64,000 bases of DNA from a virus, in IMG/VR virus record IMGVR_UViG_3300006810_006497, positions 3,918 to 67,917 of that record; one strand, written 5' to 3'. The number at the start of each line of letters is the position of its first letter. Position 1 is the first letter of the stretch. The notes beneath the pieces were generated by a model, which saw only the letters and a program-made list of their open reading frames with translations, ran no database searches and was not told the DNA's origin. Positions 23,459 to 47,353 of this stretch are shown piece by piece. A program made the translations under genes and the position numbers.

Positions 23459-23462
23459 TGGA

Positions 23463-26283: not shown

Positions 26284-27788
26284 CGCTTACCTACAAGACC
26301 AATCTCAGTTGCTGCTTGCCTGTCGATAAATCGGAAAGGTGGCTCGCCCTTGATTTTGCTGGTCGTCATTCCTTCAGGGGAGGAAGACTCATCTCCGTTC
26401 ACAGTCGAACCAACCTTGGCGGCATTATCCAACTCAGGGGTGGCCTTCGTCAACTTCTCAAGTCGTCGAAGCAGAGCCTCCACCTTTCGCTTCATGTTCA
26501 TGATCTCTGATCGGTTGAGGCTTCGGACTCCGCCGCTCTTTGACTTCGCCAGCAGAGGGTCATGCGCGCCCAATGGATCTCCAACGGCATCTCGACTGAA
26601 CTTTGGCATATTTGTCCCCATACGAGATACGGGGGGCAACTTGGTTCCCCCGCCCTTCGTGCCGCCAATGGTAGTCCCCAATTTGCCAATGCCACGGGTA
26701 TCAGCGTGTTGAGTCAAGCCAGTTGGCAATGACCCCTGCATCCGTCGCATTCGCTCATATGCTTTCTTTCGTTCCCAAGCCACAGGATCTCGAAGACGAA
26801 GTGGAATGCCCTCCGACCTGGTTGCTCCCACGTTCCTCAGCGCATGGCTGTGAACATTGGGGTGGAATGCTTGGTTTCGAGATTCTCGATCAAGTTGCAG
26901 GGATACCGCTGCGCTTCGACGCTTAGTTGCTGATTTTGGTTGACGGCCACCACGGGCAGACTTCACGCCCTTCTTTCCACGCTTTTTCTTGCGCTTGTTC
27001 TTGGCTTTGCCCTTTCGCTCATCCTCGTCGCTCTCCTCGTCCTCGGTGTAGCGACGGCCCTTGTATTTCCTCCGAGCCTTCAACAGGCTGTCAAAGGTGG
27101 CCTCAAATGGGTCGTCTTCGCTTTTCCATTCTTCAATGAACTCTTGAGGGAATGGTTGCATCTGTTGCATCCGATAAGCGTATTCCTCTTGACCAGGCCT
27201 CATGGCAATGGTGGTTTCACCGCGCTCCTTGGCAGCACAGATGGTGCAGATCTTTGGGCCTCTGCGGTCTTCAATCTTCATGTCAAAGTTGATTTGCATT
27301 TTTCGACCGCACTTATCGCATCGAACATGATTGTCAAACACGCTCTTGCCCAACATGAAAGGGACGACGCTGTTCTGCGTACCGAACTTCACATTTGGCC
27401 CTTCACTACGAACAGACCCAACATTGGCTCCAGCAGAGATTCCAAGCCCCCCTCGATTCATGTCGATCATGCCCGACTCAAGCATTTGTTGCTCCTGCTC
27501 CATGATAGGGCTTCGATTCAATGACTCATCGATTTTAGCGGGCTTAAGGCCAACATGAGGGATTTTCGCTTCCAACTCACGCAATGCACGTTCTCGACGC
27601 AACCGTGGATCGCGCTGATCAACGCTTTCGCCATCTTCTGGCGTTTGGCGTGTGTGATGCGACAGGCCGTCAGCATCCTCGTTGGGGTTGATGTCGTGAT
27701 CCAACATCTCACGCGGGTTGAATCCGCCTGTCATCTCCTGTGTTCGAGGAGTCCACAACAATGGTTCACGGGGATTGCTAACGACCAT
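26280..27788 (-). CDS. basic hypothetical protein with Zn ribbon and internal leader-like motif
   Basis: CDKC-x18-CTIC. DPFEATFDSLLKA followed by a K/R-rich segment. Confidence 0.65.
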   Translation of the reverse strand: MVVSNPREPLLWTPRTQEMTGGFNPREMLDHDINPNEDADGLSHHTRQTPEDGESVDQRDPRLRRERALRELEAKIPHVGLKPAKIDESLNRSPIMEQEQQMLESGMIDMNRGGLGISAGANVGSVRSEGPNVKFGTQNSVVPFMLGKSVFDNHVRCDKCGRKMQINFDMKIEDRRGPKICTICAAKERGETTIAMRPGQEEYAYRMQQMQPFPQEFIEEWKSEDDPFEATFDSLLKARRKYKGRRYTEDEESDEDERKGKAKNKRKKKRGKKGVKSARGGRQPKSATKRRSAAVSLQLDRESRNQAFHPNVHSHALRNVGATRSEGIPLRLRDPVAWERKKAYERMRRMQGSLPTGLTQHADTRGIGKLGTTIGGTKGGGTKLPPVSRMGTNMPKFSRDAVGDPLGAHDPLLAKSKSGGVRSLNRSEIMNMKRKVEALLRRLEKLTKATPELDNAAKVGSTVNGDESSSPEGMTTSKIKGEPPFRFIDRQAATEIGLVGKR

Positions 27789-32778: not shown

Positions 32779-32826
32779 ATTGATATGCCCAACAACTCCA
32801 AATAAGGAGGCTCTTGTCCCATGTGC

Positions 32827-33348
32827 ATGAGCAATACGCCAACGCTTCTCGTTGCCGTGCAAACCCTGCGTTCCTACAACCAAGCATTGGCGGGAATGAA
32901 CAATGACCCCACGGCCATTGAGAATTGGATTCGACGCTACGCAGAAGCCGATTCTCGATCAAGCACATTCCCAAAGGATGCGGCCATCGGCCTCCTTTCC
33001 TATTTGGGAAACCCCGTCTTTGCATCGAGCAACATCACCGCCGATCAACAGGCGTGGTCGGCTGAGATGGCGAGCGCAGAACAGATCATGCAACAGGAAA
33101 ACAACTGGATAGGGCGTCAAACCGTTCAAAACAACGCTACAACCTTTGCACGTTTGTTTGGTTCGGATCTCGAATGGATTCAACTCTATGCTCAGTCGAA
33201 GTCAATGACCGCCAACAACGGCTGGACAAACGAATACCTCATCAACATGGTCATCGCTGATCTGCGCGTGTGCAACGGATCTGGTGGCGCAGGTGCAATT
33301 CCTCACACGGCGATGAACCCATCGTCAAGCAACAATCAGTTGCCCTGA
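32827..33348 (+). CDS. hypothetical protein (lone plus-strand gene in the late region)
   Basis: Fills the gap between two minus-strand units. Protein-like composition. Confidence 0.6.
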   Translation: MSNTPTLLVAVQTLRSYNQALAGMNNDPTAIENWIRRYAEADSRSSTFPKDAAIGLLSYLGNPVFASSNITADQQAWSAEMASAEQIMQQENNWIGRQTVQNNATTFARLFGSDLEWIQLYAQSKSMTANNGWTNEYLINMVIADLRVCNGSGGAGAIPHTAMNPSSSNNQLP

Positions 33349-34514
33349 CGCATCTTCTCCCAAGCATTTTGGAAAGCATCTTGATCGATGTTTGCCATTC
33401 CCATCAACTCGCTCTTTTTTCCTCGAACAGCACCTTTGCCGCCGCTGGTTTCCTTTCGTTGGAGTTCATGAATGTCAAAGCCCATATCGCTAATTGGGTC
33501 AACGATTTCGGGAGCAAATGAATTGAACACAACTGTTGGGAAACCGTGGCTTGCCAATCCTTCAATCAAAGCCAATGTTCGTTCTTGATCATCCATCGTA
33601 AAGAAGTCCAATGCGCCTTCTTCACCCATGTAGGGCGGATCGAGAATAAACGCATCTTTTGCGGGGTTCAACTCAATGTCGGATTCGAGTTGTTCGTGCA
33701 ACGGCCTATCTCGATATTCCCACCCCTGCATGGCTTCCGACCATGGGTCAAGTTCCCATCGACCTTTGCCTCCAAGCAACTTTTGAGGTCGGAACGTGTT
33801 GCCTGTCCCTGGTTTAAGGCGGTCTTTTTGGCCCTGCATCAAATCAAAATAAGCCGACTCAAACGATGGTTCGATTGGTTTATTCCCTGTGAATCGCAAT
33901 GAACCAGCCCATCGGTTGAACAGATTTGGGGTCTTAGGAGAATATCGCAACAAACCGTTCATCGACATATGCTGCAACACGAGGAAGAGTTGGTCTTTTC
34001 TTTGCCGCTCACGCTGACTGATGACGCCTTCTCCCTCTTTTCGTCGCAACTCATTAAACTCTTGACGCAATTCGTAAAACTTTGGCCCCATGAAGAACGG
34101 ATCTCCGCCCATCTCATCAACGAGGCTTTGAGGAACAGTTCCCAAATCCATCATCTCACCTGTGTTTGGATTTGGCATCATCACACTATCGCCCGCTTCA
34201 TAGGTGAAGGTTTCTGGCTCAAACGACAAAGAGTCTGGATCGTTGATCAAACGCTGATGAAACGATGCCAAGTCTGGGTTGATGTCCATGAGCAGAGCCT
34301 CTTGAGGCCGCATCCCCAAAGAAAGTCCCGCTGCTCCGCCAAACGGCTCAATGACTCGACGGTCTGGCATGATTTGCTTCAATGCTCGACCAATGGCTTG
34401 GTATTGAGGATTGGCTTTGTTGCCTTGGATTTTGATGGCTGGAGGCAGAGATCCTCCTGTTTGCAACGCTCTCAAAGCCTTTCGATATTGAGGGTGCATC
34501 TTACGGAGTTCCAC
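33336..34514 (-). CDS. DNA adenine methyltransferase (Dam/D12 class)
   Basis: IKIQGNK, IEPFGGAAG (motif I), DINPDL, ILDPPY (motif IV). Confidence 0.85.
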   Translation of the reverse strand: MELRKMHPQYRKALRALQTGGSLPPAIKIQGNKANPQYQAIGRALKQIMPDRRVIEPFGGAAGLSLGMRPQEALLMDINPDLASFHQRLINDPDSLSFEPETFTYEAGDSVMMPNPNTGEMMDLGTVPQSLVDEMGGDPFFMGPKFYELRQEFNELRRKEGEGVISQRERQRKDQLFLVLQHMSMNGLLRYSPKTPNLFNRWAGSLRFTGNKPIEPSFESAYFDLMQGQKDRLKPGTGNTFRPQKLLGGKGRWELDPWSEAMQGWEYRDRPLHEQLESDIELNPAKDAFILDPPYMGEEGALDFFTMDDQERTLALIEGLASHGFPTVVFNSFAPEIVDPISDMGFDIHELQRKETSGGKGAVRGKKSELMGMANIDQDAFQNAWEKMRQGN

Positions 34515-35526
34515 TCAGCATCACCTCCCATGATCGGCGGATGATGTCCCCTGTCATGGCCGCATCCCACAACTCCAACCCCGCTGAGGTCGAATCATTT
34601 GGATCAAAATACATCCCGTGAGTTCCCGTGGCGATGCCTCTCGTTAATGCAGGGATGGAATAATCGTTGCCAGCGGTCAATGAAAGAGGCACAGGGATGC
34701 CCTCTTGACGGTAGCCACCTGGTTCGGTATATTCGACATAGAGTTGTCCTTCTCGATCAGGGGCAATGTCTGTCCACGAAAGAGGAATCTGCAAAAGCGG
34801 GTCAACAGACCCCGACACTCCATGAGATCGTGCGGGACGCCATGGTTGGCCGAAGTCCTGTCGTAGTGGCAACCGTTGTTTTGGCTTCCACTTTTCTTTT
34901 GGCCCCAACGTGTTGTCGAGGATGTCGTACACCTTGTATCCAAATCGAGGGGCTTCTCCACCTGCGAAGGACAACGCAGCATCACCGAATGGGTTGCGGC
35001 CCATCTGCAAATCGCTATGCATACCGAGGATGTCCAACGGTGATTCACCTGCGTACAATCGAGCCAACTCAGCGGGGTCGAGATTGCCAGCCGTCCAAAG
35101 GTGAGCGGTTCGGTTGGCATTTCCACGTGCATCGGTGTTCGGTTGCTTTCGACCAAGCCAAGCATCAGCCTGTTTGTTTTCGTTTAGACGGAAGAACGGG
35201 TCTTTGAGAGGGAGCATATTGGCAATGCCCATGATCTGCTGGCCTCCTCGAAGAACGCTCAAGACTCCCGTATCTGGTCGGATTTGACCAGTTGATTGAA
35301 TCATGCCTGGTGAAATGTGAGGTGAATTGATGTCGATGTTGCGAAATGCCTCAATGGTGTGCGGCCTACCTACGGAAAACCCACCCCGCATCTCACGAAG
35401 ATCTCCTCCCTGCGTTTCAACTGGATAAGCCGTCAGCCCATCCATCGAAACAGTCCCTAAATCGATACGATCACGCTTGTTCCTCTGTTGGAGGAGTTGT
35501 TGCCAAGTGTCATCGAATACGCCCAT
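34501..35526 (-). CDS. hypothetical protein with leader-like N-terminus
   Basis: MGVFDDTWQQLL. No catalytic motif recognised. Confidence 0.6.
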   Translation of the reverse strand: MGVFDDTWQQLLQQRNKRDRIDLGTVSMDGLTAYPVETQGGDLREMRGGFSVGRPHTIEAFRNIDINSPHISPGMIQSTGQIRPDTGVLSVLRGGQQIMGIANMLPLKDPFFRLNENKQADAWLGRKQPNTDARGNANRTAHLWTAGNLDPAELARLYAGESPLDILGMHSDLQMGRNPFGDAALSFAGGEAPRFGYKVYDILDNTLGPKEKWKPKQRLPLRQDFGQPWRPARSHGVSGSVDPLLQIPLSWTDIAPDREGQLYVEYTEPGGYRQEGIPVPLSLTAGNDYSIPALTRGIATGTHGMYFDPNDSTSAGLELWDAAMTGDIIRRSWEVMLSGTP

Positions 35527-35535
35527 TTGAACACC

Positions 35536-36507
35536 TCAATGTTTGACATATCCAACATTTCCTTGTCCCGTGTCCCAACACGAGGAGCATCTGTTGCCTT
35601 CGCATGAGTTGATTGGATTTGTTGGATCGGATGCAGGGCAATAGTCCTCATCCAATGCACTTTGCCTAAACTGTGGTCGAGAAATAACAGAGGACGTCAA
35701 AAGTTGAGGGAATTGCTCAAGCATATCAATGTGCCTTTGGGGAAGTGGTTCAATGCCTCTTTGTTCATTTATCTCGTTATCAGTTGTTTGATCAATCATT
35801 GGAAGGGAAAGCCGCAATGCCATGTTGCCAGGTAGTCCTCCTCTCGCTTGAACAACCTTGTTCGTGAGATCCCATTCTCGCGTAGGTAGCCAAAACATCG
35901 TATCGGGCAACGATTCAGCAATTGCCATCAAATAAGCCAAGTGTTCGGGAGAATCCAAATCGCCCGAATCATGCCAACGGAAGAATGGAAGTTGGTCTTG
36001 TGTTCTTGGGATTTGATTGACCATTGCAGATGCCCATCGTTGGGGGTCGTTTTTCAACGCAGAAAAGTTCCTCAATAGATGGCGTTGGACATTGTTAAGC
36101 GGATAATGTCCTTTATCGTGAGCATAGCATCCTTCACAAACCGAACCTTTGACCCTACGCAATTTTCCACCCCTCATGCACATATGCGTAGGGAGAGAAT
36201 ATGTGGCATTGGGCATTTTCTTAGGTTCCGAAAACCCCCCTCCAAGTGCTTCTTGGATTTCGTCTTTGTTCGTCCAAATGTCTTTCGCTTTCCAAGGAGC
36301 AATATCTCTTGGCCCCATGTCGAGGTCTGCGTCAATACGCTTCCGCCTTAACGCTGCAAACTCTCCAAGTGGATCCTCTTGAAGGTATCGAAAAGCGGTT
36401 TGATCATTCTTAGGGAACGCTTCTCTGCCAATGAGGTCATCCAAATTGAAGTTGTTTGGATCGAGGGCTTTGACCAGCAAATCCCATGCCTTTGCAAACA
36501 CGTTCAT
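35536..36507 (-). CDS. Gp88-like (radical-SAM-related) protein with leader
   Basis: KMP..YSLP..C...CEGCYA, FRWHDSGD, FWLPTRE, C-terminal CPA..C..C..CW. Confidence 0.75.
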   Translation of the reverse strand: MNVFAKAWDLLVKALDPNNFNLDDLIGREAFPKNDQTAFRYLQEDPLGEFAALRRKRIDADLDMGPRDIAPWKAKDIWTNKDEIQEALGGGFSEPKKMPNATYSLPTHMCMRGGKLRRVKGSVCEGCYAHDKGHYPLNNVQRHLLRNFSALKNDPQRWASAMVNQIPRTQDQLPFFRWHDSGDLDSPEHLAYLMAIAESLPDTMFWLPTREWDLTNKVVQARGGLPGNMALRLSLPMIDQTTDNEINEQRGIEPLPQRHIDMLEQFPQLLTSSVISRPQFRQSALDEDYCPASDPTNPINSCEGNRCSSCWDTGQGNVGYVKH

Positions 36508-36512
36508 CGCGA

Positions 36513-36839
36513 TCAGTCCTTCCTTACCTTTTGGTGCAAGCGTCGAAGGGTTTCCGATTGAAGCGAATCGGTATCGCTGCCCTTTGGCCGTTCCGTTTTC
36601 TTCTTTTCATCACGGGGGACGCCTCGAACACGGTTCAGCAGGTTGCGAATCGACGAGTTGGTTGGCCCTCCTGTTTCAGGATCCTTAGTGGGTTTTGACT
36701 GTATCACGTTATCAACGGCAGCGTCGATGTCCTCCTCCATCTCAGGAGAAGGCTTGTAGGGCCAGCCCATCCGCCGATGGTATTCATCACGGGAAGACTT
36801 CATCATTTGCCACGTCTTCTCAAACGAGGCATCCGCCAT
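36513..36839 (-). CDS. small basic protein with leader
   Basis: MADASFEKTWQMMKS. Confidence 0.65.
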   Translation of the reverse strand: MADASFEKTWQMMKSSRDEYHRRMGWPYKPSPEMEEDIDAAVDNVIQSKPTKDPETGGPTNSSIRNLLNRVRGVPRDEKKKTERPKGSDTDSLQSETLRRLHQKVRKD

Positions 36840-36887: not shown

Positions 36888-37400
36888 CTATATGTCCATC
36901 AAAATGTTCTCAAGCATTCGACGCCAATCGTAATCGGTTTGATTTGTTCGAGCAGGGAACCTTTGAGCCACTTCAATGTCTTGCGGGGGTATTGTGTGCG
37001 GAGTCCTCATTTGGGTGAAGTCCTCTTGACCGTAATCGGGGATGTAATCACCTTGGACGCGTAGCAGAACTGGTTGTTTCATCCCAACACCGTATCCCGC
37101 CAATTCATGCAAATCATGTGGCAATGCCCATGACCACTTCCCCTCAAACAGACGATTTGGATTATCATCTCCAAAAAGACGTGATGCGTGTTGTTTCATT
37201 TGATCGAGGAACGCTGTTTCATCGTAGTCATCAAATTGTTCTTCTTGGAGCATCATCGCTTCAGGGAGGTTTTGATGTGGCAGATCTCCCGTTGGCTTCA
37301 AGCCATCTCTCATGATTGAGTCAAGGTTCTCCGATTCGGTGATGTGATATGGCATTTTCAACAACTCCCAAGTCGTTTCAAAGGCCCCCAAAGCAATCAC
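36888..37400 (-). CDS. ADP-ribosyltransferase-fold (Tpt1/KptA-like) protein with leader
   Basis: YHIT..NL.SI..DGLKP, PVLLRV, HTIPPQDIEV. Confidence 0.65.
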   Translation of the reverse strand: MIALGAFETTWELLKMPYHITESENLDSIMRDGLKPTGDLPHQNLPEAMMLQEEQFDDYDETAFLDQMKQHASRLFGDDNPNRLFEGKWSWALPHDLHELAGYGVGMKQPVLLRVQGDYIPDYGQEDFTQMRTPHTIPPQDIEVAQRFPARTNQTDYDWRRMLENILMDI

Positions 37401-37669
37401 CTAAAATCATTCAAGGTTCTTTGAGCGTTGCCAAGTCTTGGCAGGGGGATGTTGAATGCATCGCCGCCAATGGCTGCACCAACTGCGGGGACGAGAACAT
37501 TTCCAAGTGCCGTATCAATCACCTTCTGTCGCTTTCCTGTCGTGTAGGTGTTGTGGCTCATTCCCTTTATGGGGGTGAGGTCATAGGTTGGATCGAAGGT
37601 TTGAGCCATAAGGAACTCTTCATCGGAAAACGGTCGAAGGTACATCACCGTTGGTCGATTGTGAGTCAT
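37397..37669 (-). CDS. C-terminal part (motifs IX-X) of a C5 cytosine methyltransferase
   Basis: LRPFSDEEFLMAQTFDPTY (IX) and ALGNVLVPAVGAAIG (X). ATG overlaps the upstream TGA. Confidence 0.65.
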   Translation of the reverse strand: MTHNRPTVMYLRPFSDEEFLMAQTFDPTYDLTPIKGMSHNTYTTGKRQKVIDTALGNVLVPAVGAAIGGDAFNIPLPRLGNAQRTLNDFR

Positions 37670-38742
37670 CCCTGAAACATGGCGGTTTGCAGGGTACGAA
37701 TGAGAAAATGAACGAGGCTGTTTGTTGCGAGGGCCTTGGCATCGTCCCATGTTGAGCCGCCTCGACCAGGGACGGTTGCACCACTCAACGAGATTTGGGG
37801 GCCAGCCCCCAATTCTCGAACTGCACTTTCAGTCAAGTTGCCTCGACTGAGCAACTCATCAAGCCAATATCGGACATCTCCTTGGTTTTCTTCCCATTCT
37901 CTCTCTAAATGAGGCATGAAGTCAAGAATTGAACGGCTTGGCAAGCGTCCAGCAATTGGATTCCTTCTTGTTCGGTCATAATGCGTTGGTCGCTTCTGCC
38001 AACCCTCGCCAATGATCATGCGGTTTCGAGTTGATGGTGCGCCGTAGTCAATTGCATTCATTCGTGGATTTTGCTTAACCGTACCCATCTCGCCTTTTCC
38101 TCGCAACATTGCAATAACCCGATTCCCAAAATCTCGATCAAGGGCGGTTTCGCCCTCGAAAAGAAGGTGTTGATTATTAAGGAGATCAGGTATCACCTCT
38201 TTGGCTTGCTCAACGTGCCAAGAATTGAGGTCAATGTCTGGGTGCTTTTGCATTTGTTGAGCGGTGTAAAATGCATTCAACACAGGGGGTATCCCTCCTA
38301 ACGCACGTTCTGCCCGTTCTTCTGCTGTCAACCCCCCCGTTCCAGCGGATGTCAACAGTTGACACGGGGGAGATGCGCCAAAGTGTCCACGGCGACCCCC
38401 CAAAGCATCTGCATAGACCTCCACTTGATCGTCGGGGTGGGCTTGGCCTTGTTCGGTTCCAAGCCATGCGGTCATGGTCTTTTCTTCGTAGGGTCTTCGG
38501 ACGGCGTTGACTGCATCCCATGCATCCACCCCCATAGCCGTAGGGATGCCCATCCGTCGCATTCCAGAAGATGTTCCGCCAACCCCCGCTTGTTCATGAA
38601 TACCTGCGATGTCATCTCGCATCGGCAATTGAGGATACATGATGTCATGAAGACGTTTCATTTCCTCTTTATCTTCTGGAGTCATGGCCTTCCACAGCAT
38701 ATCGGAGAAGGCAAACTCGAATAAAGGCTCACTCAATTCCAC
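37666..38742 (-). CDS. C5 cytosine methyltransferase, motifs I-VIII (split/frameshifted), with leader
   Basis: EQAGVGG (I), ASPPCQ (IV), VEQ (VI), DYGAPSTRNR (VIII). Confidence 0.75.
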   Translation of the reverse strand: MELSEPLFEFAFSDMLWKAMTPEDKEEMKRLHDIMYPQLPMRDDIAGIHEQAGVGGTSSGMRRMGIPTAMGVDAWDAVNAVRRPYEEKTMTAWLGTEQGQAHPDDQVEVYADALGGRRGHFGASPPCQLLTSAGTGGLTAEERAERALGGIPPVLNAFYTAQQMQKHPDIDLNSWHVEQAKEVIPDLLNNQHLLFEGETALDRDFGNRVIAMLRGKGEMGTVKQNPRMNAIDYGAPSTRNRMIIGEGWQKRPTHYDRTRRNPIAGRLPSRSILDFMPHLEREWEENQGDVRYWLDELLSRGNLTESAVRELGAGPQISLSGATVPGRGGSTWDDAKALATNSLVHFLIRTLQTAMFQG

Positions 38743-39602
38743 ACCGCCTTAAATCGATTCTTGGTTTCGTTGTATTTATTCTTGGCTGCAACTTTCAACG
38801 TAGGATTCTTGATTTTGTGTGCAAGTCTTCGAGCCGCTTTGAGGTCGGAGGACTTGACACCACAGTCAATACCCTCTTTCTCGCACCACTTGACGAGATC
38901 CTCGGTGGCAAGGTTTGCTCCAGACCCCTCAACGAAGGGGCAACCGCCAAGACCACCGATGCTGGAATCAAACTCTCGAACTCCCTTAAGATAACCAGTT
39001 GACACGTTGTTCATCAAGTGTTTGCCATGATGGAGGTGCAATGCCAGATCGTGGGTGAAATCGTTTGCCGTATCGATTCCCGCAGCGATGTCAAACGGAG
39101 TCGCCGTGCCTTTCGTGTCGCATAGCACGATTTTCGTACCAAAGCGGAGTCCATGCTGGACGGCCACGGCGAGATCCTCTTGACTGGCATCAAACGCCTC
39201 CGACAGGTACACTCGAACAGACTCTCGTGGCACACCTTGGAGGCACTTCTCATAATTCTCAAGGATCCGCTCCAACTTCAAACCGTAGTTGGCGATGTTG
39301 AAGGACTCAATTGGTGAGAAGAAAATGTTGAACAAACTCATGCCGCAACTGACGGCACGATCAAGTCCACGTTGATTTGGCACGAGGACGGACAGTCCCC
39401 GCTTATCGTCAAAGGTTTCGCACACTTCTTCGGCGTCGGCCATGTTGGGAACGGCCTTGGGATGAACAAAGGATGCGATTTCGATGTGATCGAGGCCAGC
39501 ATCCCTCAACAACTGGATGAGATGGATTTTGTCATCGGTGGACGGGACGTGCGGCAGATTTTGAAGTCCATCGCGAGGGCCGACTTCAAAGATCCGAATC
39601 AT
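38733..39602 (-). CDS. hmgL: hydroxymethylglutaryl-CoA lyase
   Basis: EVGPRDGLQN, ASFVHPKAVPNMAD, LHLH, DSSIGGLGGCPF..G..NLATEDLV. Confidence 0.88.
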   Translation of the reverse strand: MIRIFEVGPRDGLQNLPHVPSTDDKIHLIQLLRDAGLDHIEIASFVHPKAVPNMADAEEVCETFDDKRGLSVLVPNQRGLDRAVSCGMSLFNIFFSPIESFNIANYGLKLERILENYEKCLQGVPRESVRVYLSEAFDASQEDLAVAVQHGLRFGTKIVLCDTKGTATPFDIAAGIDTANDFTHDLALHLHHGKHLMNNVSTGYLKGVREFDSSIGGLGGCPFVEGSGANLATEDLVKWCEKEGIDCGVKSSDLKAARRLAHKIKNPTLKVAAKNKYNETKNRFKAVWN

Positions 39603-39605
39603 GCC

Positions 39606-40379
39606 TTAATCCTCCATTCCTTGATGAGGCCCCAACAATCCAGCCCTTCTCATCAAAATGACTGCTGTTTCGCGTTCAATTGGGTGTTTGAGGCTCCTGT
39701 ACCATGGTGCTGTTGCACCCTCCTCTATGGCCTCTTCGAGTTCTCGTTGCATTTGATCGCGCCATGCCGTCCCAAGGTGCGGCATCATCTCTGCTGTCAA
39801 CACATCTCGATGAGGCAACTCTCCTTTCAAACGCTTAATGGCATCACGCATATGGGCAACTTGTTCTTCGGGGAAATAAGTGTCAGCACTTGTTTCGATG
39901 GTTGAGGGGCCATAATCGATTGGCTCATCCTCTCCATAATCGGCTATCATACGTTCCAACGCCGCGTTAATTTTTGCCTCGACCTCTTCGTCGGACAATT
40001 GCTCTTGTGGCTCCTGCATCTCATCGAAAATGAAACTGTCTTTGTTTCCTCCTTGATCCGACATGACGTAAAAATCCTGATCAGGTACGTTTCGTGTGCG
40101 CCAAATTGCTGGACGGGTTTGTCTTAAGGGGACTCGATTTCGATCCATATCGATTAGATGCCCTCCAGGGACTCCTCCTTCAATGTCAGTAGGGAGATCT
40201 CCAACAGCAGAACCAAACAGGGCGTAGGCCAAAGCGGTATCAAAATCAGCAGTTGCATACCTCACATTGTCGTCCTTATCTCCGCCCGAATAAATGACAT
40301 CATAGGGGATCACCTCCCCATGCTCGTTGTAAATGGGGGCTTTGGTGATCGAATCCCAAGCGGCCTCAAACAAACTCAT
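39606..40379 (-). CDS. divergent ADP-ribosyltransferase-like protein with leader
   Basis: IYSGG..D.VRYATADFDTALAYALFGS. Paralog of 43449..44192. Confidence 0.5.
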   Translation of the reverse strand: MSLFEAAWDSITKAPIYNEHGEVIPYDVIYSGGDKDDNVRYATADFDTALAYALFGSAVGDLPTDIEGGVPGGHLIDMDRNRVPLRQTRPAIWRTRNVPDQDFYVMSDQGGNKDSFIFDEMQEPQEQLSDEEVEAKINAALERMIADYGEDEPIDYGPSTIETSADTYFPEEQVAHMRDAIKRLKGELPHRDVLTAEMMPHLGTAWRDQMQRELEEAIEEGATAPWYRSLKHPIERETAVILMRRAGLLGPHQGMED

Positions 40380-41761
40380 TCGTCGTCCCTCCAGTCTTTC
40401 AATTCGCTCACCGCCGACTCCGTGGCCGTTGGGAAGTCGTATTTGAGGTATGCTTGGTTGAATGAACGCTTTCCTTTGGGAGCAAACACGTAATACGTCC
40501 CATCACCATGGACTCCTTGATCATCTCCCAACAACTCCCGTATTCGATTCATAAGGCCTGGGTATTCATCATTGGGAAGATCGTGGTAGTCGAGATCACG
40601 ATATGGGGCTTTGATGCTCCCATAATCGCTGTAATTTCTTCCAAACCCGTGGGAATCAACCACTTCTCGTGGAAGCGACTGCCATGTTGAAAAGAACAAC
40701 TCAGGGTCTTGAGCCAAAAGTTCGCTTGTCTGCGTCCCCCAACCCTTCCATGAACCATCATCTCTCGCTCGAAGTGAGTTGCCAAGAGCCTCTCGCATCT
40801 CACTTTGCCCAATCAATTGTTGCAATGATTCGGGGAGTTGTGCAAGTGAGGTCGGAAGCGGAGCATTGCCTTGAACCACATCTTTTTTGTGGCGATTTAA
40901 TGCCCTTCGGATTGCTCTTGTTCGATCCCTTGCTCCTGCCATTCGGTCTGGATAGGAAAGAACGCCAGATCGTTTTGATGAGAGGGGGAACGTGTTTTGA
41001 GTCAAACCACTTTCCATAACCGAATCAACAACTGCATTTTCCAAATTGGCAAAGACTCGATTGATTCGATTCTCCGTTGAACGGTTTGTTTGCCAAGGGT
41101 CAGAAGGCAGTTGGGTCGCCAATAACCGTGGTTTCTTCAACTCCCTGTCCAAAAACCGTTGACCTACATCGGTATGAGATTTCAGCCCATGCAAGAAACG
41201 CCTATCCGCTTGTTCGCGTGAATTAGGGTCTTGAACCTCATCCAACAACATTTCATCTCGATAATTTTCGGGATGAGCCAAGTATTCCATCATGTAAGCA
41301 ACTCGTTCTTTCATCGCCTCATGTTCGGATTGCGAACGATGCCTAAACGAATGCCAGCCACTATTTCCCTCGCGATCCGAGATGTAAGACCCTCCGCCCC
41401 TATGTGGGAAAAATCCCGTGTAATTTGGATCGGCTTGGGCGTGTGCTTCATGTCCTTCTTCGTGATGCATGATTTCACGAATGTAATTCATGAGGTCTAT
41501 GTCGCCATAGCCTCGGTTCTCACCGACTCTCCCAACGCTGCCGAGGTTGACAAACATGGAATCCGTGAGTTGATTGTTATAGGGGCCATAGATGAGCGGG
41601 CCGTCTTTTCCCTCTCTGCCAATCGGAACTCGATATGTGTACGTGGCAGGTTGCCCTGTCCGAACACCTGCAAAGTCCCGACCCAATCCTCTTCGGTTCA
41701 TCCGACCGCCGAGCATGAAGTCCATCTTGGTGATCGAGTCCCAAGCCTGTTGAAACGACAT
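40376..41761 (-). CDS. zincin-like metallopeptidase domain protein with leader
   Basis: MSFQQAWDSITKM. IMHHEEGHEAH (HExxH) and a downstream E (ERVAY). Confidence 0.6.
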   Translation of the reverse strand: MSFQQAWDSITKMDFMLGGRMNRRGLGRDFAGVRTGQPATYTYRVPIGREGKDGPLIYGPYNNQLTDSMFVNLGSVGRVGENRGYGDIDLMNYIREIMHHEEGHEAHAQADPNYTGFFPHRGGGSYISDREGNSGWHSFRHRSQSEHEAMKERVAYMMEYLAHPENYRDEMLLDEVQDPNSREQADRRFLHGLKSHTDVGQRFLDRELKKPRLLATQLPSDPWQTNRSTENRINRVFANLENAVVDSVMESGLTQNTFPLSSKRSGVLSYPDRMAGARDRTRAIRRALNRHKKDVVQGNAPLPTSLAQLPESLQQLIGQSEMREALGNSLRARDDGSWKGWGTQTSELLAQDPELFFSTWQSLPREVVDSHGFGRNYSDYGSIKAPYRDLDYHDLPNDEYPGLMNRIRELLGDDQGVHGDGTYYVFAPKGKRSFNQAYLKYDFPTATESAVSELKDWRDDE

Positions 41762-42480
41762 CACAATCGCCTCCGATAGGGCCATTCTTCACGGCCTTGC
41801 CAAAAGCGGATTGCATCATCGCTTTGTGAATCGGACGGAACAATACGTTGCCCGTTGTATTCATGTAGGATCTTAGCCGCCATGTCGTAAAGAGCGGTGG
41901 CGTATCCTCGCCTTCTCAAGGCTTCACCTGTGTAGGTTCCTGTTGAATGGAAGTCTGTTTCAGAGTCAATGCCGCTCAATTGACCTGGGGGTGCAACTCG
42001 AAGGGGGCGAAAATCCGCCTCTGCTGCATGACCATCATCGATTGCAAGGGAAAGAAACGGTTTGCCCGCCCATTTTTGTGAGGTCTTTTTGCCAGTCGGA
42101 GAGTAAAATGGTCGATGAACAGCGGTTATTGGATAAACGTAATCAGCGTTTATTGGATCTTGGAACATTGCCTCGTAGTAGGCTAAGGATGGATGACCAT
42201 CGGCCTCTTCAAAATCAACTTCACGGAATGATTGAGGGACAATCGGCATTTTCACAATTGAGTCCCAAGCCTGGTCAAAGACGTCCTCGCTGGCTAATTT
42301 CTCTTGAACTTCTTGCGAAAAACCCTCTTCGGACATCTCCACAGGATTCTTGAACTCGCACATCATACACGCCCCGTTCGGATCATCTGGCATCCAAACA
42401 GGACGGCCACAGTACGAACATTTGCCGTCTTTGATGGCCTTAGCGAAAGCGATAGCGTGTTCATCGCTACCGCTGCTCAT
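41761..42480 (-). CDS. Zn finger plus internal leader plus GNAT acetyltransferase
   Basis: CSYC..CMMC, VFDQAWDSIVKMP, LRRRGYATALYD (motif A), QSDDAIRFW. Confidence 0.75.
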   Translation of the reverse strand: MSSGSDEHAIAFAKAIKDGKCSYCGRPVWMPDDPNGACMMCEFKNPVEMSEEGFSQEVQEKLASEDVFDQAWDSIVKMPIVPQSFREVDFEEADGHPSLAYYEAMFQDPINADYVYPITAVHRPFYSPTGKKTSQKWAGKPFLSLAIDDGHAAEADFRPLRVAPPGQLSGIDSETDFHSTGTYTGEALRRRGYATALYDMAAKILHEYNGQRIVPSDSQSDDAIRFWQGREEWPYRRRL

Positions 42481-42688
42481 GCATCCGACATACAGGCTGT
42501 TCTCTTCAAATTATCTCAACGGTGGCGCACGTGCGCTCGCTTATCGAGGTTCACGGCTGAACACGTGTATTGCTCACCTCGACCGATCCACTTCACAACT
42601 CCGCCCTCCGCCCCGAACAGGTCAAAACCGATTCGTTGTTGCTTATCCATGAAGGGCCACCGATCAAGCGTGATGCGGCAGATCCTTA

Positions 42689-42844
42689 TCATGGTTCGCC
42701 CTTGCGAAGACCATCCCAACACAATTGTTGCAATTCCTCTTCGCTGGTAAAGATCACCACATCGCTGCCCAGATCATTGGTTGCCAGCCACATTGTCAAG
42801 AATCCAGCGATAAATGCAAGCACGAATAGCACGACCAAAGTTGT
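42689..42844 (-). CDS. small single-TM protein
   Basis: TTLVVLFVLAFIAGFLTMWLA. Start approximate, near a TTG after GAGGGAGG. Confidence 0.4.
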   Translation of the reverse strand, partial: TTLVVLFVLAFIAGFLTMWLATNDLGSDVVIFTSEEELQQLCWDGLRKGEP

Positions 42845-43452
42845 CAATACAATCCCTCCCTCAAAACATAGGGCGGATGACGTGCCATCCCCATGCCCAT
42901 ATATCGTTGCCAAAAGTCGGACGCCAAGAACTCATCCATCACCCGTTCATCGAAATCGATAGCCATTCGGTCATGGATGTTCCTCGCAATATCGGGGTCT
43001 TCGTCTTGATCTTCATACAATGCATCAACATCTGGATAATTTTGACTGCCTGTGAACGCCACTTTGAGCATTTCAGGAGGGATGTTCTCCAAAACCGAAA
43101 AGTCATGATATGAGGGATTGAATTGAAAGCCCTTCAATCCTTCAACATCATCTGCAATCTCAATGACAACTGGGTGTGAATCAGGAGTCATTTCTCCAAT
43201 GTCCATATGAGGTTCGAGGTTGGCTGTTGCAAACCTCAATGCCCTTCTTGGATTTGGGGCCATGAATGCTCGGCTCTCGCCTTCATAAGGCGTTTCGTCT
43301 TCTTCCATGTACGAAAAATCATTGGCGTAGTTGCCTTCATCATGAGCGTGTGGAGTCAAACCATGTTGCATGATTGAGGGGATGTTCTTTGACGATGTGC
43401 CGTGATAATACGGCATCTTCAACAAAGCCCACGCTTGATCGAAGGCGGTCAT
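42844..43452 (-). CDS. ADP-ribosyltransferase-fold (Tpt1/PARP-like) protein with leader
   Basis: YYHGTS..NI.SIMQHGLTP, AFMAPNPRRALRFA, PVVIEI, ENIPPEML. Confidence 0.7.
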   Translation of the reverse strand: MTAFDQAWALLKMPYYHGTSSKNIPSIMQHGLTPHAHDEGNYANDFSYMEEDETPYEGESRAFMAPNPRRALRFATANLEPHMDIGEMTPDSHPVVIEIADDVEGLKGFQFNPSYHDFSVLENIPPEMLKVAFTGSQNYPDVDALYEDQDEDPDIARNIHDRMAIDFDERVMDEFLASDFWQRYMGMGMARHPPYVLREGLY

Positions 43453-43454
43453 TC
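43428..43454. repeat. 27-bp direct repeat, copy 1 (leader-coding)
   Basis: cccacgcttgatcgaaggcggtcattc, identical at 44168..44194. Confidence 0.9.
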
Positions 43455-44192
43455 CCAATCCTCCTCCGTATAACCCGCTTCGAGAGCAGCCTCACGTTGC
43501 CAGTCCTCCAAATCATTCCAGTCGCCAAGCATATCGGCCATATTGCCATCATAGCGAAGTGCCTCTATGAAATCGTCATAATCTGCCGTCCTAAACACGT
43601 CGCCGTCCATATCGTAGGTTGGTGGCGTGGGGTTGAACCTTTCAAGCGATTCGTTGTTCCTGTAAGCAATCAAACGGCTCAAGGCATCCTGTGCGTGTTT
43701 CAAACGCTGTGGAGCCGAATAGAGGTCGCCAGTTGTCCCTCCCAACTCCCCCCTGTACCTTCCTTCTTCGATGTATTGCTGCAACAATTCAATGACTTGA
43801 TCATGCGACATTGATTCGCCACCTATGTCTTCTTCGTCCATCACGCCAACGCCTGGGCTAAACGGATCCTCAATCATCAAACCAGGTTCATCCTCTTCGT
43901 ACCATCTCGGATCAATTGTCGTGATCCTTGGTATCGTTCTTCGCATTGGCGGCGAGGGCAAATCTTCCGTATCTCTTCGTCCCATGCGGTCTGCATAAGG
44001 AATAGCCGATCCATACAATGCATAATTCAAAGCAACATCAGGGTCTGTTGAATAATATCGTGGATCATCTCGAACGTCGCCGCCCGAATAAAGCATCTCA
44101 TCATCGCCAATTTCTCTGACTCTGCCACGTTCTGCTGCATAAACATCAATGGGGGCTTTCATCAAGTCCCACGCTTGATCGAAGGCGGTCAT
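43449..44192 (-). CDS. divergent ADP-ribosyltransferase-like protein with leader
   Basis: LYSGG...PRYYSTDPDVALNYALYGS. Confidence 0.5.
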   Translation of the reverse strand: MTAFDQAWDLMKAPIDVYAAERGRVREIGDDEMLYSGGDVRDDPRYYSTDPDVALNYALYGSAIPYADRMGRRDTEDLPSPPMRRTIPRITTIDPRWYEEDEPGLMIEDPFSPGVGVMDEEDIGGESMSHDQVIELLQQYIEEGRYRGELGGTTGDLYSAPQRLKHAQDALSRLIAYRNNESLERFNPTPPTYDMDGDVFRTADYDDFIEALRYDGNMADMLGDWNDLEDWQREAALEAGYTEEDWE

Positions 44193-44194
44193 TC
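44168..44194. repeat. 27-bp direct repeat, copy 2 (leader-coding)
   Basis: Identical to 43428..43454. Degenerate third copy near 44977..45001. Confidence 0.9.
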
Positions 44195-45001
44195 AAGCCC
44201 CTCCAACCATTTTGGCTTGCCTTCAACCAAGACTTTGTTTGGATTGTCGGAGAACGGTTCAAGTGCTTCCAATGCGCCTCGATAATGGATGTCGGGATAA
44301 TCAACACGATCCATTTCATTCAGCATCCTTGATGCTGGCAACTGGATTCCATAACGGTCAAGGTGTTCTTGCCACCCTTCCCCTGCTGGCAGTCCATCAT
44401 GACCGAGCATTTCCGTGTGATGTGGCATTATCAATTCGCCCTCTTTGTCGTATTCGTTGAACCAAGCATCAAATCCACCGTATCGGTATGGGTCAAGATC
44501 CATAACTCGATAATTGCCATGCTGATCTTTCATGTAATTGAAAGCATTCTCCAAATCTCCAAAGGCATACCCTAAAGCCTCTTTGGTTGATCTTGCGTTT
44601 TGAATTGGTTCATCTTTGGGTCGATCAATCAAACGAGGTTGAATCGTGTAAGCCTGACCGTGGTTTCCAATTGCGAGTTGTTCTCCCACGATTGGATAAC
44701 CCAACTTCTCCATGAAGGCATAAAAATCGTCATTAGCCGCCCTTCCTTCAGCGAAGGTGTTTGAAAACTCTTCAACATCGTTTGCATAATCCTCCCAAGA
44801 ATCTTCCCCTCCATGCTTGGGACGTTTTACCACGAATCGATTATCAAAAGGGTGTTGATAGACCATCATGTTTGAACCCCTTCCTTCTTGAGATAAAGGC
44901 GGTTGGCCCTCACCACCAAGGAGCGGCAGTTGCTTTGCTGCGCCCCTCCAATTGAGGCTGAACATCTTCACCAGATCCCAAGCGGTGTCGAATGCGGTCA
45001 T
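44189..45001 (-). CDS. protein kinase-like protein with leader
   Basis: GRGSNMMVY, FVVK, GDL...N, VMDLD. Confidence 0.55.
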   Translation of the reverse strand: MTAFDTAWDLVKMFSLNWRGAAKQLPLLGGEGQPPLSQEGRGSNMMVYQHPFDNRFVVKRPKHGGEDSWEDYANDVEEFSNTFAEGRAANDDFYAFMEKLGYPIVGEQLAIGNHGQAYTIQPRLIDRPKDEPIQNARSTKEALGYAFGDLENAFNYMKDQHGNYRVMDLDPYRYGGFDAWFNEYDKEGELIMPHHTEMLGHDGLPAGEGWQEHLDRYGIQLPASRMLNEMDRVDYPDIHYRGALEALEPFSDNPNKVLVEGKPKWLEGLE

Positions 45002-46215
45002 GCCAAGAACCTCCGCTTCGTCTGCTCAGGCATATTCGTCGTTGCAATGACCTCGATCTGGGGCAAAGCATTCGCCTTGGGCTTTCGCATCCACGGATAA
45101 ATGTCGGCCTCAACGTCCAAAAGGTCGCTGATCAAGTCGTAATACGGCACTTTGGAGTCCCGTGGGAACATATAATTGGAATAAATCGATGGCCCCACGT
45201 GTTCGCCCATCAAATCGACAACATCTCGTTGATCGTCATCATATTGCATTCCCCAGTCCTGTTTGGCATCGCCACCGTATTCGACCCTACGGCTCATGTA
45301 CGGGGGGTCGTTATACCACAAGTGCTGAGGCGTCAAGAAATCAAACGCATCACGGAAATCCTCGTTGAGAATATCAACTCCTTGCAAAGCGTTTGACCAT
45401 GGAGTCATGTTAAGGCGACCAACCATACCTGGCATCACACGAAAGTTGGGATGATCGCGTGGTTTGGTTGACTCACGGAACGATGCCCCCCCATATATTC
45501 CATCGGTGTACCACGCTTGAGGTTCTTCATCCCAAGGTTTGAATGAAAACATTCCATCCCGTTGCGTGTTGTTCGCACCGATCATCAACTCTGCCAAAAA
45601 TTGATTTTCGTCTTGAGTCAACGGTGTTCCTTCAACATCTCGAATACGCCGCAGATAATTGATGGTGTTGATCATTTCCCGCAACTCGTCAAGGTTTGTG
45701 GGCAGGGACACGTTGCCAAGTCCCCGTTGAGTCTGTTCCATAATGTTGGTTAGGTCTGGGTTGATGTCGTTGTAAATAGACCCCTTCTTGGGGCCAAAAC
45801 CAAACAAAAACGAACCACTACCCCCAAACATCTCCGCTGGAATGTAGTCATGACGCACATCCTGTGCCAATGTCCTCAACTGAGGCATCAACGAAGTCTT
45901 GCCGCCGATCCAATTCATGAACGTAGGCATCATCTCGTCTTGACCTTGGAAACCTGGGAGGCTGGTCAGCGCATCGGATGTACCCTCTCGGTACATTTGA
46001 GTCCATGGAACACCAACTCGACGGCCTCCAGCAGATCGAGGCCCCCCTTGAAACGGCAATTTGGGCAGCGGATTCGCCTTCTTGTCCTGTACGAAGGCGT
46101 CATAGTGGTCGGTGATCATCGGAAGGACGTCATCAATGTCCTCGTATTCCATCCCATCCCAGATAATGCCCTTCTCGATCAGCCCGTTCCACGCATCGTG
46201 AAACGCTCGGCTCAT
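44998..46215 (-). CDS. DNA adenine methyltransferase (Dam/D12 class) with leader
   Basis: FMNWIGGKT, EMFGGSGS, NDINPDL, YNDPPY. Confidence 0.88.
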   Translation of the reverse strand: MSRAFHDAWNGLIEKGIIWDGMEYEDIDDVLPMITDHYDAFVQDKKANPLPKLPFQGGPRSAGGRRVGVPWTQMYREGTSDALTSLPGFQGQDEMMPTFMNWIGGKTSLMPQLRTLAQDVRHDYIPAEMFGGSGSFLFGFGPKKGSIYNDINPDLTNIMEQTQRGLGNVSLPTNLDELREMINTINYLRRIRDVEGTPLTQDENQFLAELMIGANNTQRDGMFSFKPWDEEPQAWYTDGIYGGASFRESTKPRDHPNFRVMPGMVGRLNMTPWSNALQGVDILNEDFRDAFDFLTPQHLWYNDPPYMSRRVEYGGDAKQDWGMQYDDDQRDVVDLMGEHVGPSIYSNYMFPRDSKVPYYDLISDLLDVEADIYPWMRKPKANALPQIEVIATTNMPEQTKRRFLA

Positions 46216-46337
46216 GATCCTCGCATGGACAAATGTGGCTTAATTCCTTCGTTGAATGGAGAGCCTTTATACCGCTTTTCACCAACCACGATTTGGACGG
46301 CGGCAGGTTTCCACTTCGGCTTCGGGCAGTCGATCAT
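46212..46337 (-). CDS. 41-aa hypothetical peptide
   Basis: AGGTGA SD. MIDCPKPKWKP... Stop overlaps the next ATG. Confidence 0.35.
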   Translation of the reverse strand: MIDCPKPKWKPAAVQIVVGEKRYKGSPFNEGIKPHLSMRGS

Positions 46338-46676
46338 GGTTCTTTCTCACCTTCTTCCCCTGCCGCCGTCCTCCCGCTCAACAAAAAAATATGGGCATAA
46401 AACGGCCTATTTGACGCCCCGTCGAGATTCGACGAGATCTCAACAAAAAATTGTCTTCGGATTTTTTTTCAAGGAACGAAGCCACACGACTCGGTTGTAC
46501 GCAGATCTGGAGAAATACCCCCAGAAAAGCCAAACAAACCGTATTTCCGCATCATCTCACGCGTAAAACGCTGTGCGGGGGTCGTTGGGCGTGGGCCTTG
46601 AAAGGCCGAAGCAAACACGCTTGCCACGGTAAATGCTAACCATCCGCTATATATGTAATCTTCTCAGTCCTGTCAA

Positions 46677-47342
46677 TCACAACATATGGCGACCAACCAA
46701 CTTCAAAGACGGATCTCGACGGAGAGAATACAACGTGTCGTGATCATCAACATCATGGTATCCAATGTAGGAATAACCGAGATCCGCTATCGCCCTCTCG
46801 ATCTCCTCGCCCCATTCTTTCACGCCGCCATAACCTCCCTCAACATTGGCCTCCCATCGAGTTGGATTATCTGTGATGTCGGGGGTGTTCAAGCCCATGA
46901 CATAACGACCGACAAGATCCTTGATGTCCTTCATTGAGTCGATAAATCGATTTTCGTCCTCGTAATATCCAGGCGGATACAATTCGAGTCGATTGCCCAA
47001 ATTGTTGAGGAGCATTTGGTATTGCTCATCCGTGAGATTCTCTTCTCGCATCACCTGCAAAGGATCGTCAAGCAAATCCGATTCAAAGCGCATCACGTAA
47101 GGAACGGACATCGGTTGGTCGTCTGGATCGTAATAGTGTTCCATCGTTGCAAGACGCTCATGTGCGTAATTCTCTGCGGCGGAACGATCCGTGGTCAAGA
47201 AACCAGGATCCTCCAAAGAATACGCTTGTTGCATCCCTTTGTGATGATTGAATGGCGGCTGGTTCGGATAACCAAAGGGAGCAGCGGTTCCTCGATAGAC
47301 CGTGGCCTTGAGCAGATCCCAACTGCGTTCAAATGCGCTCAT
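46677..47342 (-). CDS. ADP-ribosyltransferase-like protein with leader
   Basis: VYRGT, GFLTTDRSAAENYA, PYVMRF, LGYSYIGYHD. Confidence 0.6.
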   Translation of the reverse strand: MSAFERSWDLLKATVYRGTAAPFGYPNQPPFNHHKGMQQAYSLEDPGFLTTDRSAAENYAHERLATMEHYYDPDDQPMSVPYVMRFESDLLDDPLQVMREENLTDEQYQMLLNNLGNRLELYPPGYYEDENRFIDSMKDIKDLVGRYVMGLNTPDITDNPTRWEANVEGGYGGVKEWGEEIERAIADLGYSYIGYHDVDDHDTLYSLRRDPSLKLVGRHML

Positions 47343-47353
47343 AGGTAGCCCCA

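Follow-up and report, generated by a model that had tools for sequence, protein, structure and literature searches.

A shared peptide tag at the borders of variable cargo genes in a magrovirus-like archaeal tailed virus

We analysed a stretch of 64,000 nucleotides (nt), here called the window, which comprises bases 3918-67917 of the 67,917-base IMG/VR virus record IMGVR_UViG_3300006810_006497. Judged by its gene make-up, the contig belongs to a magrovirus-like archaeal tailed virus from ocean or estuary. Between 33.3 and 47.8 kb, 13 of 16 consecutive minus-strand genes (14 with one degenerate copy) carry a common tag of 12 residues with the consensus MTAFDxAWxLLK, and the direct repeats seen in this array are the nucleotide footprint of that tag. 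We consider it fairly probable that these repeats reflect selection for the tag as a peptide, that cargo genes are exchanged at the linker encoding it, and that the tag is an address to the virus head.

Magroviruses are viruses of Marine Group II archaea and count among the most abundant viruses of archaea in the surface ocean; to our knowledge, no magrovirus has been cultured. A common tag on 13-17 fast-changing genes per genome would make a candidate set of proteins delivered together with the DNA readable from sequence alone, and would provide a mechanism for the turnover of that set. As a portable address peptide, the tag is also a candidate for loading foreign proteins into HK97-type shells.

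Results

A common tag on unrelated cargo proteins

The phenylalanine and the tryptophan are invariant in 14 of 14 aligned tags, and the protein bodies behind the tags (cargos) are unrelated. A six-frame search with F-x-x-(A/T/S/V)-W-x-x-(L/I/M) located the tag at or near the N-terminus of 12 array genes and at one internal array site, residue 66 of 41761-42480 (Table 1). A tag-like C-terminus is also found in the methyltransferase 33336-34514, and the N-terminus of 37397-38742 is a diverged tag (LFEFAFSDMLWK), which has the tryptophan in one orthologue. The HMGL-like gene (HMG-CoA lyase family) is the sole array gene without any tag; its C-terminal RFKAVWN was considered and dropped, because the phenylalanine is valine in the relative G002. 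The tag is an amphipathic helix. In AlphaFold models of two cargo families (mean predicted local distance difference test score, pLDDT, 66 and 59), residues 3-11 are helical ahead of the domain.

Matches to a tag profile numbered 13 in array W0, 4 in L103, 11 in L104, 11 in L105, 17 in L106, 13 in L107, 3 in L108, 14 in L109, 9 in L110 and 9 in L111, and five further records had 9-13 each. The profile had 0 matches in 21 loci of a different virus group that shares only the HMGL gene, and the tag is specific to this virus lineage. In 8 arrays, 88 tagged genes fall into 32 cargo families, 17 of which are singletons.

The same codon is used in 105 of 260 same-residue codon pairs of the window array, whereas 111 are expected from codon usage. 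The tag is therefore selected as a peptide and not as DNA or RNA, and its synonymous sites drift freely in this genome. The tag is unlikely to contain a functional RNA or DNA element, a possibility also considered, since no Rfam family matched in the window and synonymous constraint was not seen. The sequence GGAGG lies 10-15 nt (mostly 12-13) upstream of 8 of the 17 starts examined. Each cassette border is a compact linker composed of GGAGG about 12 nt upstream, ATG (often within ATGA) and 36 tag bases.

The 27-nt repeat

An exact 27-nt direct repeat occurs twice in the window (Table 1). No third copy within 3 mismatches was found in the 64 kb, where 0.00 were expected (100 shuffles). A degenerate copy lies at 44967-45003 and shows 73% identity to a 37-nt reference. 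This window-wide search confirmed the exact pair and the degenerate copy on which the original prediction was built. On the coding (minus) strand the 27-mer consists of 2 bases of the upstream gene, ATG, the codons for T-A-F-D-Q-A-W and 1 base, and its ATG overlaps the TGA of the upstream gene as ATGA; all three copies span an ATGA stop/start overlap and the codons for M-T-A-F-D-x-A-W. The further claims that each copy covers the preceding stop, the ATG and the tag codons and that the cargo diverges right afterwards were also correct: BLASTP of 43449-44192 against 42844-43458 aligned residues 1-14 only (11/14 identical) and found nothing else at E<1. A second subfamily with AWDSI codons was present as described, at 40348-40370, 41733-41755 and 42257-42279. 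The genes had been said to be joined by ATGA and TGATG overlaps; ATGA is found at 4 of 15 array junctions, and TGATG was not seen at any of them.

The two exact 27-mers bracket the cassette 43449-44192. In the relative G001 that cassette sits elsewhere, its orthologue (75% nt identity) being located between the HMGL-like gene and a gene of ADP-ribosyltransferase (ART)-like type. The first 25 tag bases of 43449-44192 match those of its neighbour at 25/25 positions, but those of its own orthologues at only 19/25. This pattern would be expected if a cassette had been inserted at a resident tag, with one tag copy remaining on either side of it. The match could be due to chance, for which six synonymous matches give p ~0.004, an estimate from codon frequencies. 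The pair could also be the remnant of a tandem gene duplication, as the two genes are adjacent and single-linkage clustering joins them, via third proteins, into one loose superfamily. We consider a duplication very improbable, however: direct comparison is blank beyond residue 14, one gene has a Tpt1-like ART fold to which the other has no detectable relation, and an age sufficient to erase all cargo similarity would not have spared 27 identical bases.

Cargo turnover between related viruses

Between G000 and G001, 32284 of 36650 bases are aligned outside the array and 7235 of 14447 inside. G001 and G002 form the closest pair of relatives, with array flanks that are 86-92% identical. Alignment of this pair across the array revealed four indels or cargo swaps, all with edges at or inside tag codons, in agreement with the original prediction. 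In the first, G002 lacks a 590-nt segment holding one cargo; an internal tag continues in frame into the tag of the next gene, and the junction falls within the last tag codons. In the second, a 963-nt cassette with a tag at either end is present in G002 only, and the single tag of G001 resembles a hybrid of the two G002 tags. The third, behind the 468-amino-acid gene, has unrelated cargos, with identity of 68/75 upstream, 32/36 in the tag and 12/42 just behind it. The corresponding values for the fourth, behind the HMGL gene, are 70/75, 32/36 and 8/42, and homology restarts exactly at the ATG of the next tag. At a fifth site, behind a methyltransferase, the cargo is swapped and the tag is less similar (26/39). 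L165 and L166, whose flanks are 80% identical, have arrays of 13-14 genes that share little besides the tags and 2-3 cargos. Related viruses differ by insertion, deletion, fusion and replacement of cargo genes, and the edges of these changes lie at the linker.

Three features favour crossovers in the linker, with homology as a possible cause: identity drops sharply at the last tag codon, the resident tag is kept at the identity level of its flanks, and one junction links two tags in frame. Alternatively, recombination may be random and illegitimate, and only those products survive that keep tag, frame and ribosome site, with no role for homology between tags. The selection of the tag at the peptide level agrees with such a filter, as does the end-to-end packing of the genes, owing to which whole-gene events necessarily end near a tag; at the 590-nt indel junction, moreover, the two tags have few bases in common. 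We nevertheless regard a mere filter as rather unlikely. At two swaps the resident tag keeps flank-level identity to its last codon (32/36, then 8-12/42), and one swap ends on its 3' side at the ATG of the following tag. DNA similarity is also highest among tags at variable sites. Tag pairs at two swapped sites are 34/39 identical, against a background of 22/39 (standard deviation 5.3, n=121 cross-pairs), and the median best identity of tag DNA is 28/36 for cassettes at variable positions and 23/36 for stable ones (Mann-Whitney p=2e-4), the two classes having been set by the analyst and the orthologues not being independent.

The opposite explanation is that tag-coding DNA is the engine of shuffling, through frequent direct-repeat recombination within a genome, perhaps with excised circles, as in an integron without integrase. 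The exact 27-mer pair flanking one cassette points in this direction. So do the exact runs of 24 to 26 nt between tags of unrelated cargos at the G001/G002 swapped sites, the in-frame tag-to-tag junction together with the one-cassette indel in that pair, and the excess of shared tag codons over expectation in L106 (329 vs 215) and L107 (196 vs 149). Such an engine is possible but doubtful. The window has no synonymous excess, and its tags are not homogenised, identity within the genome being equal to that between genomes (0.544 vs 0.547); homogenisation was found in L110 only (0.628 vs 0.542) and weakly in L106. Canonical tag DNA occurs in only 14 stretches on 10 IMG/VR contigs, and neither an integrase nor an attC-like inverted repeat was detected in the searches described below. 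Contigs of 4 public runs contain no joint between the two 27-mers, although assembled contigs, as used in this comparison, lose rare variants. The contigs of run X7 do not cover ~39976-42111, a gap that is uninformative by itself. At the 88% likeness setting, one contig of run X3 connects 38076 with 43439; it agrees with the gene order of G001 and may derive from a related virus. Inside the window, the 27-mer pair aside, there is no sign that tag DNA drives shuffling. Thus, of the idea that recombination between leaders swaps cassettes, the location of the edges is borne out by the four G001/G002 events, but the window's tags are alike only as far as the peptide requires.

Two tags, or an internal tag, were also seen in single open reading frames (ORFs): 10229-11419 of L107 (397 amino acids, two tags), 7308-8837 of L106 (509 amino acids, two tags) and 58442-60175 of G002. 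Their internal tags sit at the joints of modules that are separately tagged in other genomes; these ORFs are fused cassettes. Cargo 40376-41785 has a full tag in the window (MSFQQAWDSITK) and a decayed one, without the phenylalanine and tryptophan (HNVA-x-AK), in G001 and G002 (loci compared: 7404-8789 of L104 and 5784-7187 of L105); the same MDF residues follow. This suggests that tags can be lost.

A candidate head address

From gene position and analogy, the tag is probably an address by which proteins are loaded into the virus head, comparable to the capsid targeting sequence (CTS) of phage T4. The arrays always adjoin the morphogenesis module in the same orientation, with the replication-type genes on the other arm. 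Five longer relatives (G006, at 80-82 kb, G007, G003, G005 and G009) have another small array, with 2-5 tagged genes, behind giant tail-fibre-like genes (~1650 and 2510 amino acids); this region is missing from the window contig. Tag-like motifs are also present in two conserved genes outside the array (21959-23521 and 26280-27788; Table 1), and the product of the latter looks like a DNA-binding internal virion protein.

The tag ends in two hydrophobic residues and lysine followed by a small residue (ΦΦK-small). The protease-scaffold protein has 5 such sites (0.47 expected; a count reached in 0 of 500 shuffles) and the capsid protein 2 (0.26 expected), one of them DLLK-A at residues 32-36; a 428-amino-acid gene between terminase and portal has 4. 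The N-terminal NAW-x5-DLLK-A of the capsid protein and W-x6-FLLK-S of the protease are kept in all 9-10 genomes compared. Co-variation was considered as a way to the receptor and identified none: in L110/L111 (= G010, 2.3-9.5 kb), 7 of 9 tags have F-x-x-A-F in place of F-x-x-A-W, a concerted change, and the N-termini of the G010 capsid protein and protease retain the tryptophan.

Family matches among the cargos are two D12 DNA methyltransferases, a GP88-family protein, two ART-fold proteins, a weak GNAT and a weak C5-methyltransferase-like match. The Tpt1/KptA-like ART-fold match was obtained both with a profile (E 4e-4) and with Foldseek (E 5e-4). For most cargos, Pfam and NCBIfam gave no match even when E values up to 1 were admitted. 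The profile of cargo 43449-44192 found nothing in PDB, and its model (pLDDT 59) was too poor for a fold search. By analogy with T4, this set would fit proteins packed in the head and delivered with the DNA.

It is also conceivable that the tag is real but addresses something other than the head, by docking on a chaperonin of thermosome type or on a host hub, or by timing turnover. The virus encodes a thermosome subunit, internal and C-terminal tags suit a short docking motif as well as a propeptide, and packaging is so far deduced from analogy and gene position. We think such a role unlikely, since the arrays are joined to the structural module in the same orientation whereas the chaperonin gene lies in the opposite arm, and since the tag end resembles the capsid and protease-scaffold sites. 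In addition, the methyltransferase and ART-fold cargos match types of protein that phages are known to inject.

Discussion

A head address exchanged at its own linker may imply the following mechanism. Exchange would occur in the linker, or would survive only there, and would rely on ordinary recombination, homologous or with short homology, between relatives that infect the same cell; alternatively, it may take place among the subset of tags whose DNA is still almost identical. The pair of exact 27-mers would then be a duplicated tag flanking one recently placed cassette (43449-44192). The tag would direct the cargo to the assembling head, and the S78 prohead protease may remove it behind its hydrophobic-hydrophobic-Lys end, as T4 does with the CTS.

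Several points weigh against this reading. Tag DNA in the window, with a mean identity of 54% over 33 nt between cargo families, is poorly suited to homologous recombination. Edges at the tag would also result from selection on random events, and the run contigs contain no joint between the 27-mers. As for the head address, the tags of G010, most of which have changed tryptophan to phenylalanine, need not share one receptor with a capsid protein and protease that kept it. The helicase-like gene 50296-53748 also has 4 ΦΦK-small sites (1.0 expected), so that the count of these sites is weak evidence and suggestive only. The C-terminus of the scaffold is unlike the tag.

More tentatively, the linker might serve two purposes, as a capsid address at the peptide level and as a preferred crossover site at the DNA level, and would then be an integrase-free counterpart of the integron, possibly with excised cassette circles. 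Co-infecting magroviruses would in this way trade genes that are ready-addressed, in frame and translationally coupled, and excised circles, if formed, might re-enter at any resident tag. The identical 27-mers flanking 43449-44192 suggest an event of this kind. If true, archaeal viruses would possess an integron counterpart written in coding sequence.

Among known systems, the internal proteins (IPs) of T-even phages come closest to the tag system. According to passages of PMC3012670 and PMC12373910, the CTS is the sole conserved part of diverse counter-defence proteins injected by T4. The same papers and PMC2839356 describe T-even IP genes as small, highly variable loci whose CTS addresses the proteins to the prohead core; in PMC2839356 their shuffling is attributed to promoter/stem-loop repeats beside the genes. 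The tag resembles the CTS as a short N-terminal peptide common to proteins with unrelated bodies. However, its sequence differs from that of the CTS, the protease is a Peptidase_S78 and not of gp21 type, the host is archaeal, the tag is also found at internal and C-terminal positions, and an array holds 13-17 tagged genes whereas T-even phages have three. The repeat in our array is the coding tag itself, and loading and cutting are proposed by analogy. Because of the S78 protease and the different tag sequence, the tag system is an analogue, not a member, of the T4-type CTS system.

In T4-type phages, short conserved repeats named PeSLs, promoter/stem-loop elements, border non-essential genes in hyperplastic regions, and close relatives differ by insertions, deletions and replacements located at these repeats, as stated by Arbiol et al. 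2010 (PMC2839356). The tag repeat likewise flanks variable genes, and the four differences between G001 and G002 map there. A PeSL, however, is an intergenic promoter plus terminator, whereas the tag repeat is translated and carries the start codon; array genes overlap by ATGA, and no inverted repeats are present at the borders. Comeau et al. (2014) reportedly treated PeSL-mediated modular shuffling in T4-type phages as well.

The array had also been likened to an integron without a recognisable integrase. Indeed, no integrase family was found among 67 ORFs with Pfam or 51 with PHROGs on this incomplete contig. Inverted repeats like attC were absent from the cassette borders; the one inverted-repeat pair in 33-48 kb lies inside a gene. 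Like an integron, the array is a row of compact cassettes that all point one way, mostly lack promoters and turn over fast in content. It differs in having neither integrase nor attC, in that recombination is not site-specific, and in that the cassettes are translationally linked and have a common peptide. The array is not an integron, and "integron-like" holds as an analogy only.

Two further systems deserve comparison. In CdiA/Rhs toxin loci a conserved peptide motif stands ahead of a variable C-terminal module, and its DNA provides the homology for exchange. As in our array, conserved motif DNA ahead of a variable module permits in-frame exchange; unlike it, these loci are bacterial and consist of one long carrier with orphan tips and immunity genes, whereas the array has many separate genes of different function. 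Encapsulin cargo-loading peptides are short terminal peptides that dock diverse enzymes in an HK97-fold shell from either terminus. The tag is similar in its shortness, its diverse cargo and its placement at either terminus, but its sequence is unrelated, and the shell would be a DNA-filled head with a protease. What is new here is a coding-sequence variant of T-even internal-protein loci and PeSL shuffling, in archaeal viruses. No published description of the tag was found in the literature searched, including the portions consulted of the magrovirus papers PMC5434244 and PMC11706807, supplements aside.

Gene layout and minor observations

The positions of the repeats, tags and genes are listed in Table 1.

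Table 1. Repeats, tag codons, cargo genes and tag-related structural genes in the window
Feature	Position	Strand	Remark
Exact 27-nt repeat, copy 1	43428-43454	-	ATGA overlap and MTAFDQAW codons, gene 42844-43458
Exact 27-nt repeat, copy 2	44168-44194	-	ATGA overlap and MTAFDQAW codons, gene 43449-44192
Tag codons of gene 47354-47782	47726-47761	-	SGAFDLVWRIMK
Tag codons of gene 46677-47354	47307-47342	-	MSAFERSWDLLK
Tag codons of D12 methyltransferase gene 44998-46215	46177-46212	-	SRAFHDAWNGLIEK
Tag codons of gene 44189-45001	44966-45001	-	MTAFDTAWDLVK; degenerate third copy
Internal tag, residue 66 of gene 41761-42480	42253-42288	-	DVFDQAWDSIVK; AWDSI subfamily
Tag codons of gene 40376-41785	41729-41764	-	MSFQQAWDSITK; AWDSI subfamily
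Tag codons of gene 39606-40379	40344-40379	-	MSLFEAAWDSITK; AWDSI subfamily
Tag codons of gene 36888-37400	37356-37391	-	GAFETTWELLK
Tag codons of gene 36513-36839	36798-36833	-	ASFEKTWQMMK
Tag codons of gene 35536-36507	36472-36507	-	MNVFAKAWDLLVK
Tag codons of gene 34501-35526	35491-35526	-	MGVFDDTWQQLLQ
Small acidic cargo, weak zinc ribbon	47354-47782	-	Zn_ribbon_8, E 0.02
Cargo without family match	46677-47354	-	only in this genome among those compared
D12-class N6-adenine DNA methyltransferase cargo	44998-46215	-	position stable in G001, G002
Cargo F4, without family match	44189-45001	-	same place in G002; unrelated cargo instead in G001
Cargo without family match	43449-44192	-	between the two 27-mers
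Tpt1/KptA-like ADP-ribosyltransferase-fold cargo	42844-43458	-	tag predicted helix, residues 3-11
Zinc-ribbon N-extension, internal tag, then weak GNAT-like cargo	41761-42480	-	
Cargo with HExxH motif (by eye)	40376-41785	-	without family match
Divergent paralogue of 43449-44192	39606-40379	-	
HMGL-like, untagged	38733-39602	-	most conserved gene of the array
Gene with weak C5-methyltransferase-like match	37397-38742	-	split in window by 1-nt difference at 37735
Second ART-fold paralogue	36888-37400	-	
Small cargo without family match	36513-36839	-	position stable
GP88 family (PF17338) cargo	35536-36507	-	position stable
Tagged protein	34501-35526	-	fused to next methyltransferase in G003, G004
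D12 methyltransferase, tag-like C-terminus (DAFQNAWEKM)	33336-34514	-	C-terminus kept in G003, G004 orthologues
Conserved 502-amino-acid protein	26280-27788	-	internal tag-like motif (PFEATFDSLLK), then very basic Lys/Arg-rich region; zinc ribbon
Conserved gene by terminase	21959-23521	-	near-N-terminal tag, then arginine-rich stretch
Large terminase	20508-21944	-	left minus-strand arm
Portal	17473-19275	-	left minus-strand arm
S78 prohead protease fused to scaffold-like C-terminal half	10499-11863	-	5 ΦΦK-small sites; presumed processing enzyme
Major capsid protein	9328-10476	-	N-terminal NAWAYSGTDLLK-A resembles tag end

The left 48 kb consist of minus-strand genes, including those for a tape-measure-like protein, tail tube, capsid, protease-scaffold, portal and large terminase. 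The capsid protein is 33% identical to its counterparts in the haloarchaeal siphoviruses HVTV-1 and HCTV, and its remaining matches in the phage collection are archaeal viruses in 11 of 11 records. For the capsid gene, 254 relatives in IMG/VR were confirmed. The longest records among the relatives measure 92-97 kb, with an estimated completeness of 88-92%, and the window contig is therefore a fragment. The right arm, 48-64 kb, is on the plus strand and has a guanine-plus-cytosine (GC) content of 0.59, against 0.50 in the left arm. Its genes include the helicase-like 50296-53748 and, at 60222-61796 on this replication-side arm, a thermosome alpha-type chaperonin (530.8 bits; NCBIfam equivalog cut-off 450). 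DNA polymerase B and primase are absent from this incomplete contig. A capsid akin to that of haloarchaeal tailed viruses and a thermosome/GroEL gene are described for magroviruses in parts of PMC5434244.

At 37735, where the window has the two ORFs 37397-37750 and 37666-38742, the contigs of runs X2, X3 and X5 have one extra T, which merges both into ~449 amino acids, similar to the 444-471 amino acids of the orthologues. The window holds a 1-nt frameshift here, either real or from assembly. A search for related loci with gene 40376-41785 found none. The array has two gaps. The 363-nt gap 42481-42843 shows stronger conservation than the adjacent sequence (85.7% identity to G001 over 42695-42846) and may hold a small gene, such as the 68-amino-acid ORF 42516-42722, or a regulatory element; the second gap is 46216-46676.

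Between the oppositely oriented arms, at 47783-48800, GC content rises from 0.50 to ~0.60 and no convincing gene was found; 48930-48993 contains short direct repeats. One run X3 contig spans 47221-48500, so the junction of the arms is not an assembly chimera. The sole plus-strand gene of the left arm, 32821-33348, is located at the 3' end of the array; it has no family match and is kept in 5 of the 6 genomes compared.

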